Assembly: GCA_944390125.1 (NCBI GenBank) | Contig: CALXOX010000001.1 | Location: forward strand, 120,427 to 184,426 | Reading direction: 5' to 3' | From: an uncultured Alphaproteobacteria bacterium | GTDB taxonomy: Bacteria; Pseudomonadota; Alphaproteobacteria; Rs-D84 | DNA length: 64,000 nucleotides | Part shown: positions 6,001 through 9,000 of the stretch, one piece after another | Position numbering within the stretch: position 1 is the first letter of the stretch | Layout: every line of letters starts with the position of its first letter | Made by a program: the position numbers

Positions 6001-9000
6001 ATCCCACATGGCAATTTCATTGGACTTAGAATCACGATGCAGGCGCAGATTTTCGCGGATAAAATGCAATTCCACTTTATCAGCCTTGCGTAATTCATCC
6101 AGTTCAACAGATTCCTTGAAACTGCGCTGGACACGGTCAATACAATCCGCAACAATTGCAATTTTTTCTCGTTGTGCTTTAACAAAGTTCAGCATTTCAA
6201 CGAACTTTTTACGGTCGCCCTTTGTTGAACTCTCGGTAATTTGAAAGGTTTTAAGCAGCGTCAGCCCATTGCGCTGGATATATTTGTTCAGATTATCCAG
6301 CTGGGCATCAATAGACATACCATTTTCTTGCTCACGCGATGAAACACGAGCAAGTATTACTGCTTTCATGTTATTCACCGAACAAAATATTGTTTTAACA
6401 GAGTCCAAAAGCGTTTAATAATAGCTTAATTGTTGGAATTTGATTTATATTGGCAAGCAAAACCTCACGTCCAACTTTAGTATTTAAAAATCGTTTAAAA
6501 ACAATTTCGTTTTTTTGTCTGTTTATATCGTTAATTTTAAATTCTATTGATTTGATGGTTTGCTTATAATTGGTTTCTTCTCCGGTTAATTCTTGCTTGG
6601 CATTGACATAACGTGCAATTTTAGTATCGCAAGCATCTATGAATTTTTTATCGTCTTCTGTTAGCTTGACAGCAGATATTTCTGCATCTAACATTTCTTT
6701 CATTTTTTTTGTCGTTTTTCCGCGCAAATTTTTCTCAGAGACGCCAAGAAGCATTAAAAGTAATCCCTCTATAGAATTCGGCGAAGAAACAATTAAGATG
6801 GGGTTTTCATTGTTAATATTTGCATTTTGTAAATCTGTATACGGAATGTCTTTTAATTTTCCGTCGGTTAACTGCCATCTTTTTTCTAATGCCGCTAAAA
6901 CATCTTCACTTATTCGCAGTTCTTTAACAAATTGAAAGTCTTCGTCAAAAAACGCAAATACAACCTGACCATAATCAGAGCACTTAAAAGCGGTATTTAA
7001 CACGTTATCAGCGTTCTTGCCATAACAAGGTTGTAAATTTAACCTAAAATCGCTAAATTGCCCGATATGTTCTAAAAAATATTTCTCTCTATATCCCTCA
7101 TGAACTACCAGTATAGATTTGCGTTTTTTCTTTACCATTATCAAGCCTCCTTTATCTTTGGGCGGCCATCATATTCTCCCGCTAGATATTTTATGAAATA
7201 ATTTTCATCGTTTCTAACTCCTTGAATGTCGTCTAATCTCGTAAGCTCTGTTTCGCTTTTTGAGTTTTTTTCCGCTATAAATATCTGTGTCTTCGTCAAA
7301 TTTTGTAGAAACCATGGGTTATGCGTGGTAAACAAAATCTGCGAATTATTCGGATTTTTTTCTGGGTCTAAAAATCTATTGATAATTCTGCTTGTTATAT
7401 CAGGATGAAGACTTTGTTCAAGCTCATCAGCTATTAACAAACCGCCGTCTCTAAAGATTTTATATAGATGTACGAACAAATCAATATAAGACAAGGTGCC
7501 ACTAGATTCTTGAAGTAGTAACAAAGGATGAACCTCTCCATCAATAGTATGTTTGGTCACTATTGCAGAATATTCTTCTTCACCATTTACATCAGAATTT
7601 ATTTTTTGTAATTTTCCAAACCCTAATCCAGAAATACCAGTATCTATGTTTTTTAGTTCTTCAATTAATTCTTCAAATAACAACTTATCTTTTTCTAACT
7701 CTTTTGATATTTCGCTAAGTCTACGCAATGGATTATGTTGGCCAATAACGACTTCTGGGCGAACATTAGTTAAAAGTTTTTTTATTGTTCCTAATTCACC
7801 TTTGCCAAAATAATTTAGTTCCAATAATAATGACAACAAAGACATGTCATCGCGTAAGCGCTCTAAATCTTGTGTATTGACAGATAGCGTGTTTTGTATA
7901 CGTTTACCTGATTCTCTTTTAAAAATTGTATTATATCGCTTTGTGTTTTCTTTTAGTTCTCCTAACCATTCTCTTTGAACCTCTCCCTTAAAAAGGCCAA
8001 TTTCATATTTATATTGTTTTTGGTTGTCTATAAATTCTGTAGAAAATTCTGTAGGCGCATTTTCACAACAAAAATGCGTATCTACATTACCTTCTCCTCT
8101 TAAAGAAGGAACAGAATAAGAACGAAAAATATATCGCAAAAAAAACACGATAGCCTTTAGGATATTACTTTTTCCACTAGCGTTTGGCCCGACTATACAT
8201 GCAATATTATTTACAGCCTTGCCTCCAACCTCAGAATAAGCATTTTTTCTTTGGCTTTCAGATATTTCAAAATTGACGACAATTTCTTTACCAATAGACC
8301 TATAATTTGTTATTTTAAAGTTCAAAAACATGGCTTTTACTCCATTTTTGACGATTTTCTGTTAAATTTTGCCTCAAAAAATTATAAAAGTCAATAAAAA
8401 AACAAACCTTATGAAAAGGTTCGTTAAACTTATTTTGATTTATAACTCTCTTATTACAGATAATGCTTGTGTATGTTATTTCAAGTGTATAAGACTGATT
8501 TTTTATAATATTTACAATAAATTTTATTATTTTTTTTACTACTGTAATGTCGCCATAATAGCTTCATAACATTTATTGTTAAAACCTTTTATTTCATTTG
8601 ACAACCTTCTAAAGCAATTTCTATCAATAAATCGCTTTGTGATTTCAAATTGTTGACACCTATTTTGAATTTTATTTCGTTAAATTGTCCGTCCATCGCA
8701 TTGTTATATGTTTCGGAAACAAATTGATATATCATCTTTTTGACAGATGCAACTGTGCATTTGCAATCTTGACCACACCGCTCTATATCCTGTGTTGTAA
8801 ATACCTCTTTCTTTTTTAATGCTGTTATTTGTTGACATTTTTTATAAACATTTTCATCACTTCCAAATATATACTTATATTGTTGTGCTGTCATACCAAG
8901 TATTATATTTTCTGCCGCAGCCAAGTCTTGCTGTTTTGGTCTATAAAAACTGAAATACCAAACAGATACACCGCCGATCAGCGTAATAATGGTAGTAACA

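Follow-up and report, generated by a model that had tools for sequence, protein, structure and literature searches.

An AbiL/RloAB-type gene pair on a tRNA-Gln island of a gut alphaproteobacterium, a candidate anti-phage system

The question raised by the locus described here is whether two adjacent minus-strand genes of an uncultured alphaproteobacterium form an anti-phage system and, if so, of which kind. The genes lie in a 64,000-nucleotide stretch (the window) of contig CALXOX010000001.1 (GenBank assembly GCA_944390125.1, positions 120,427 to 184,426, forward strand). The upstream gene encodes a protein of 396 residues, the ATPase, and the downstream gene encodes its partner. The host is a gut alphaproteobacterium close to Candidatus Enterousia. 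An initial annotation of the window regarded the pair as an AbiL-like defence candidate, and the analysis reported here agrees: the two proteins match AbiLi and AbiLii respectively, their catalytic motifs are intact and the ATPase gene comes first. Judged by sequence, the pair adds a divergent new member to the known AbiL/RloAB kind and is a candidate anti-phage system. The reading that we favour, with a probability of about 0.7, is that of an AbiL/RloAB-type module, an AbiLi-like ABC ATPase with a Toprim-type metal-dependent nuclease, which is carried as cargo on an integrative island and would act by a mechanism analogous to those of PARIS and OLD.

The ATPase and its partner

The profile matches of the ATPase make it a clear AbiLi-type AAA_21 ABC ATPase. 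AbiLi PDLC02335 is the best of the 113 matching models among the 5027 of PADLOC (1.5e-69, 232 bits, residues 1-395), and Pfam gives AAA_21 (4.2e-29, 103 bits against a cut-off of 27) and AAA_15 (1.5e-15). The expected Walker A (GPNASGKS, 48-55), Walker B (LLIADE, 298-303) and H-loop (TTH, 335-337) motifs are all present, and a signature-like SSGT occupies residues 276-279. Across 24 relatives with identities down to 28% there is no variation at G48, G53, K54, S276, G278, T279, D302, E303 and H337. The clade, with 406 clusters at a threshold of E<=1e-10, is fairly large. A metagenome-assembled genome (MAG) of the alphaproteobacterium Candidatus Enterousia intestinigallinarum has a copy with 98% identity, and the sole sequence relative in the PDB is the ATPase of retron Ec83 (E 7e-4). 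The ATPase gene at another locus, L003, was considered as a split pseudogene; this was dropped, the interruption being a scaffold gap of Ns.

The second PADLOC match of the ATPase is AriA (5.4e-29, 100 bits), followed by HEC-01A, PtuA and GajA. A PARIS system (AriA/AriB), which would sense anti-restriction proteins such as Ocr, has this similarity in its favour, together with the common architecture of an ATPase gene followed by a Toprim gene and a match to AriB at 1e-05 by one distant relative of the partner. It is nevertheless very unlikely here. AriA scores about 130 bits below AbiLi for the ATPase, the partner matches neither AriB in PADLOC nor DUF4435 in Pfam (to E<=10), and AbiLii and AriB are reported to have no significant sequence similarity (PMC13064643).

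In NCBIfam the ATPase has sub-threshold matches only, to retron, PtuA, MADS3, RecF and SMC models. The weak matches to RecF and SMC, which cover Walker A only, could be taken to mean that the pair is a housekeeping one of the RecF/RecR, SMC or ABC-transporter type, particularly as the Toprim proteins include RecR (Aravind 1998, as cited in PMC11464382), and the names RloA and RloB of some relatives could point to an accessory of a type I restriction-modification (R-M) locus. The scores are far below the cut-offs (23 against 172 bits for RecF, 20 against 567 bits for SMC). The surroundings contain no hsd, kleisin or transporter permease genes; backbone genes of the island and a recombinase adjoin the pair, which resides on a strain-variable island that sister strains lack. 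On these scores and this context the readings as an ABC transporter, an SMC or RecF/RecR pair or an R-M accessory were discarded, and they must be considered extremely improbable.

The partner appears to be a real but outlying member of the AbiLii/RloB family. The N-terminal EG-E-YF motif ascribed to it is found as HEGYREKYF (E14, G15, E18, Y20 and F21) and the central motif as SSPNSIEGLLL (S118, P120 and E124); it also carries FDED (D65, D67). In an alignment of 67 relatives there is no variation at E14, G15, G40, D65, D67, W88, N107, P120 and K147 and hardly any at E18 and S118, a conservation of the motifs that is far above chance. The pattern is that of a Toprim domain, with a glutamate after strand 1 (E14) and a DxD after strand 3 (D65/D67). 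The sole direct match is a weak one to AbiLii PDLC02337 in PADLOC (5.6e-07, 28 bits, residues 3-211), and nothing real was found in Pfam at E<=10, NCBIfam or PHROGs. Among the 67 relatives, two AbiLii models are matched by 30 and 16, Pfam RloB is reached by only 11 (best 1.5e-05), and single proteins match AriB, GajA, mad4, PDC-M12B and HEC-01B. The concern of the initial annotation that the partner might prove to have no RloB or Toprim similarity is answered by the AbiLii match, by the relatives that reach AbiLii or RloB and by the invariant glutamate and DxD. Its other concern, an unrelated ABC transporter or SMC system, is answered by the lack of transporter, SMC or hsd genes next to the pair.

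The assignment of the partner was calibrated with canonical RloB proteins. The seed of the canonical profile was an NCBI-named 'RloB family protein' of Clostridium beijerinckii, encoded next after the ATPase's nearest annotated relative on a plasmid; all 120 proteins among the matches listed for this seed contain PF13707. All 25 canonical RloB proteins match AbiLii, at 1e-26 to 5e-31, and the partner is, as had been supposed of the pair, diverged in comparison. Alignment to the canonical RloB profile by hhalign with default settings gave a probability of 29% for the long-form family of the partner and 55% for a wider set, and a greedier alignment (mact 0.05) gave 65-66% with E about 6e-05. In the greedier alignment EG..E..YF stands in register with TEG..TE..YF, FDED with FDKDD and SIEG with SFELW, and the partner has an insertion of about 30 residues. 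It is because of this register of the motifs and of the calibration that the partner is regarded as a probable, outlying member of the family.

The two open reading frames (ORFs) are found on the minus strand where they were first placed, at 7141..8331 (396 aa, ATG) and, if translation of the second starts from a TTG, at 6395..7144 (249 aa). The reported 4-bp overlap holds only with this TTG start. The homologues of the partner all start with MVKKKR or MKKKKR at an ATG that matches position 7138, every gene call starts at the same ATG, and a GGAGG precedes it; the product is therefore 247 aa long rather than 249, and the spacer between the genes is 2 nt, the junction consisting of the stop codon TGA, then TA, then ATG. 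The corresponding gaps in relatives of the pair are 1-37 nt. With the 2-nt spacer and a ribosome-binding site (RBS) within the upstream gene, the translational coupling of the partner to the ATPase is tight. Neither protein justifies the description of the pair as short: the ATPase falls within the usual size range of its clade (391-404 aa), and the partner exceeds canonical RloB (about 218 aa) in length. The co-directional order with the ATPase gene upstream is that of the PADLOC definition of AbiL and recurs at loci L018, L020-L022 and L026.

Predicted structure and rarity of the partner

A shallow alignment yielded a poor model of the partner, with a predicted local distance difference test (pLDDT) score of 70. 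The alignment of 67 sequences yielded a model with a pLDDT of 96.1 and a predicted template modelling score of 0.90. In this model strands 8-13, 32-37, 60-65 and 114-118 alternate with helices, and E14 and D65/D67 are located at strand ends, as in Toprim domains. The predicted Toprim core comprises approximately residues 1-130 and includes an insertion (about 68-112) which is seen as extra helices at 66-106. The C-terminal part (135-243) is helical and contains a long hairpin (161-183 and 191-221). Compared with canonical RloB, the partner thus differs in the insertion of about 30 residues, which separates the DxD strand from the S-x-E motif, and in a longer helical C-terminus with the hairpin. 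The model aligns to PDB entry 2p62, which is the top HHpred match (>97%) of AriB, the PARIS nuclease from Lactococcus and a DUF4435 Toprim protein (PMC11381338). HMMER searches of the PDB gave chance matches only, for the partner family and the canonical RloB profile alike. Since even the canonical profile is without a sequence relative in the PDB, no solved close relative of the partner exists. The comparisons of structure lean tentatively towards a Toprim fold, and the motifs fit one.

The partner family is rare, with four clusters in 5.8 billion proteins. An exhaustive search with a five-sequence HMMER profile collected 85 representatives, of which about 8 are full length; the remaining ones, of about 190-220 aa, match residues 1-155 only. 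Only 4 species genomes out of 185,579 contain the long form, and no plasmid match to the partner was obtained by tblastn. The long form accompanies ATPases down to about 57% identity, and at 44-45% ATPase identity a short form of 207 aa takes its place. The partner diverges faster than the ATPase: 44%, 36% and 33% partner identity correspond to 70%, 58% and 45% for the ATPase. The proposal that the pair may be a new variant is modestly justified in that the partner is divergent and of a rare long form; the architecture is that of a standard AbiL, and both proteins are matched by PADLOC models.

A distinct AbiL subtype defined by the long-form partner, with the nuclease docking on the ATPase or being released from it through the hairpin in a manner unlike that of PARIS, Gabija or OLD, and with another trigger or substrate, is a speculative and rather doubtful extension of these findings. 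Control of the nuclease might also be coupled to the excision state of the island, because the pair is directly upstream of the island recombinase.

The island and the pair in other genomes

The pair is cargo of an island integrated at the 3' end of a tRNA-Gln(CTG) gene. The empty sites on sister-strain contigs (L009 and L011) match window positions 3977-4899 and 13456-14141 with a 9-nt overlap, and the island therefore extends from about 4900 to 13455. It is flanked by a 9-bp core, CAACCAAGA, at 4891-4899 and 13456-13464. The GC content is about 0.29-0.35 within the island and about 0.40 outside. The island genes are on the minus strand and run from 13237 to 4864 in the order 460-aa orphan, 209-aa protein, 171-aa HUH-like Rep candidate, small membrane-like ORFs, ATPase, partner and large serine recombinase. 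The recombinase gene starts 25 nt downstream of the partner gene and is co-directional with it; the start giving 501 aa is the one used by the gene calls in L003-L005. The terminator-like hairpin upstream of the ATPase gene is the 5' boundary of the two-gene unit. The features of the locus are listed in Table 1.

Table 1. Features of the gene pair and its island (window coordinates)
Feature	Position	Strand	Evidence
AbiLi-type ABC ATPase (396 aa, ATG; AAA_21/AAA_15), presumed sensor/regulator subunit	7141..8331	-	Pfam, PADLOC, motifs
Divergent AbiLii/RloB-like Toprim partner, presumed nuclease effector, 247 aa from ATG 7138	6395..7138	-	
GGAGG RBS of the partner, within the ATPase gene (3' end), 7 nt ahead of ATG 7138	7146..7150	-	Sequence reading
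Promoter-like site upstream of the ATPase start, TTGACT-17-CAAAAT	8366..8394	-	Consensus scan only, predicted
Terminator-like hairpin, 10-pair stem and T run, which ends the upstream backbone gene	8401..8425	-	Consensus scan
Integrative island, 8,556 bp, with the pair as cargo	4900..13455		Empty sites, GC
tRNA-Gln(CTG)	4823..4896	+	ARAGORN; same tRNA at empty sites
Large serine recombinase, 501 aa from ATG 6369, context gene	4864..6369	-	Pfam Resolvase, Recombinase, Zn_ribbon_recom

The distribution of the pair among other genomes is not tied to the island. A buffalo-colon MAG (L026) has the pair, with identities of 83% and 68%, on a related island, the recombinase of which is only 44% identical. 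In a sibling island at the same site (L013) the Rep-like protein and the recombinase are both 96% identical and the slot of the pair is occupied by an unrelated gene. In a sheep-rumen MAG (L018/L027; 70% and 44% identity) the pair is found without the island, next to genes of an Mrr-type nuclease, a DUF4238 protein and a D12 methyltransferase, and in a Spirochaetaceae MAG (L020/L028; 58% and 36%) it is found among glycoside hydrolase genes. Because it also occurs alone, off the island, the pair is a self-contained, portable two-gene cassette.

These arrangements bear on an alternative in which the pair is an addiction module of the toxin-antitoxin (TA) kind that stabilises the island: the ATPase would neutralise a nuclease toxin, loss of the island would kill or arrest the cell, and defence would be secondary or absent. 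The position of the pair 25 nt upstream of a co-directional recombinase gene, which is kept in two island lineages despite the divergence of their recombinases, would suit such a module. AAA proteins with TOPRIM_OLD proteins have been validated in NetFlax assays as pairs of an AAA antitoxin and a toxin that it neutralises (PMC10440598), and PARIS has been described as a type II TA system (PMC13064643). Against this, the pair is also found off any island, beside the restriction-type genes of the sheep-rumen MAG or the housekeeping genes of the Spirochaetaceae MAG, and the sibling island keeps the same backbone without the pair. TA behaviour and abortive defence can, moreover, coexist in characterised relatives. 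Addiction as the primary function of the pair, compatible though it is with defence, is on balance unlikely, and the AbiL/RloAB-type defence module is retained as the preferred reading.

Several further observations concern the islands themselves. The gene in the slot of the pair in the sibling island (L013:1075-4854) adjoins the recombinase gene and encodes a 1259-aa protein without Pfam or PADLOC match, possibly also a defence gene carried as cargo. A second variable slot is located at the far end of the island, where the window has the 460-aa orphan (11855-13237, minus strand), which is without Pfam, PADLOC or PHROG match, and sibling islands have a protein with a PIN_8/PIN_12 domain (L013:8578-9651, L012:933-2084). 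The 171-aa backbone protein (10214-10729, minus strand) contains the HUH-like motif 'YHMHILIK' and has weak matches to REP_ORF2-G2P in Pfam (6e-4) and to phrog_3584 (3e-3); it is kept at 96% identity in L013 and at 68% in L026, and its sequence suggests that it may be a rolling-circle Rep or a relaxase of the island. In the Ca. Enterousia intestinigallinarum MAG (L025:6768-7620) the same island, with the pair 97-98% identical, has another flank arrangement; its recombinase matches are fragmentary and frame-shifted (about 300 of 501 aa), and this island may be immobilised or the region misassembled.

The recombinase ORF crosses the left junction (4864-4899), so that its last 12 or so codons are antisense tRNA-Gln and chromosomal DNA. 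From a reading of the joined ends, excision would change the C-terminus of the recombinase from ...SILVGAAGFEPTL to ...SILVDDSKRITN. At two further empty sites (L008:9744-9954 and L010:9573-9954) there are 2-3 copies, 171 bp apart, of a 40-bp sequence equal to window 13456-13495. The copies overlap the 3' end of tRNA-Gln and run downstream, with a single tRNA there; they may have been left by earlier integrations or be attB-like stretches duplicated in tandem. On its other side the tRNA gene is adjoined by two tandem autotransporter genes with Chlamydia-PMP-type repeats (window 1373-4399, minus strand, and further left L001:12740-18973), the length and sequence of which differ from strain to strain (907-1046 aa; over parts, about 79% DNA identity).

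Relation to known systems and proposed mechanism

AbiL is known as an abortive phage resistance system of Lactococcus (Deng 1999, as cited in PMC13064643). The AbiL of L. lactis plasmid pND861 (PADLOC PDLC02335 and PDLC02337/8) has the same two-gene order as the pair described here, an ABC ATPase followed by an RloB/Toprim-type protein. Both are carried on mobile elements, a plasmid in Lactococcus and a chromosomal, tRNA-integrated island here. The alphaproteobacterium considered here is Gram-negative and lives in the gut, and the likeness is judged via the PADLOC models. RloA and RloB of a C. beijerinckii plasmid (NZ_CP073654; WP_077869052 and WP_077869051) likewise consist of an ATPase and a tightly coupled Toprim-type partner; the ATPases are 27% identical by tblastn and 30% by global alignment. 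The Campylobacter prototype of RloAB is located within type I R-M loci, whereas the pair has no hsd neighbours.

The likely functional template is PARIS, a class 4 member of the OLD family, which has an ABC ATPase and a separate Toprim nuclease in common with the pair. The ATPase belongs to another clade, with AbiLi far above AriA, and the partner is without the DUF4435 signature. No evidence was found in the pair for the hexameric propeller, the Ocr trigger or the tRNA target of PARIS. P2 OLD and GajA of Gabija (OLD-family classes 1 and 2) may be analogous in that an ABC ATPase controls a Toprim nuclease. In these proteins the two domains are fused in one polypeptide, whereas here they are encoded by two ORFs with a stop codon between them, and the sequence similarity is confined to the C-terminal half of the ATPase. 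Gabija has in addition a UvrD-like partner, GajB, and no such gene is found by Pfam adjacent to the pair.

A number of points weigh against the favoured reading. The AbiLii score of the partner is about 20 orders of magnitude below those of canonical RloB proteins, Pfam RloB (PF13707) is absent from it even at E<=10, and its hhalign probabilities against RloB are only 29-66%. A Foldseek search of the PDB with the partner model gave no match at E<=1e-3; a topo VI chain appeared at E 0.08, and OLD, GajA and AriB structures were not among the matches listed. A scan of viral contigs found the long-form partner in no phage or viral contig. Among the cargo of the sibling islands and the other island orphans PADLOC and Pfam recognise only PIN_8 domains; because PADLOC is silent on the sibling-island cargo, 'defence slot' is a label that we only infer for this position. 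Lactococcal AbiL acts after phage transcription, and an AbiL mechanism has not been demonstrated (PMC13064643). Because this is so for every AbiL, a function of the pair in phage defence is inferred by analogy with PARIS and OLD, and its trigger, substrate and stoichiometry are proposed entirely on the strength of that analogy.

In PARIS an AriA hexamer sequesters AriB, Ocr triggers the release, and the AriB dimer cuts tRNA-Lys (PMC11464382, PMC12409363); P2 OLD has been reported to be an abortive tRNase (bioRxiv 10.64898/2026.07.10.737580). By analogy with PARIS AriA/AriB and P2 OLD, a dimer or higher oligomer of the ATPase would keep the nuclease inactive. A phage-derived cue, sensed via the ATPase cycle, would then release or activate the nuclease, which would cleave an essential nucleic acid, either host tRNA, as in these two characterised relatives, or DNA. 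Translation and growth would halt ahead of phage progeny, amounting to abortive infection. The partner would most likely dock on the ATPase, or form a nuclease dimer, through its insertion or its C-terminal helical hairpin.

AbiL has been grouped with the defence systems that combine an ABC ATPase with a Toprim protein (PMC11464382), where AbiL/RloAB pairs are usually listed; the Toprim assignment of these pairs is based on HHpred and AlphaFold, not on solved structures. The locus does not overturn this understanding. It is a useful but unsurprising addition, chiefly of note for its rare long-form partner and for the clean limits of the island, and offers a compact, well-delimited and divergent example of AbiL in which both catalytic sites are intact and the predicted nuclease fold is confident. 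Through the insertion and the hairpin of the partner, control of the nuclease by the ATPase could be explored. Uncultured gut Alphaproteobacteria have a small family of tRNA-Gln islands in which the cargo beside the recombinase can be exchanged, a site at which further defence genes may be sought.

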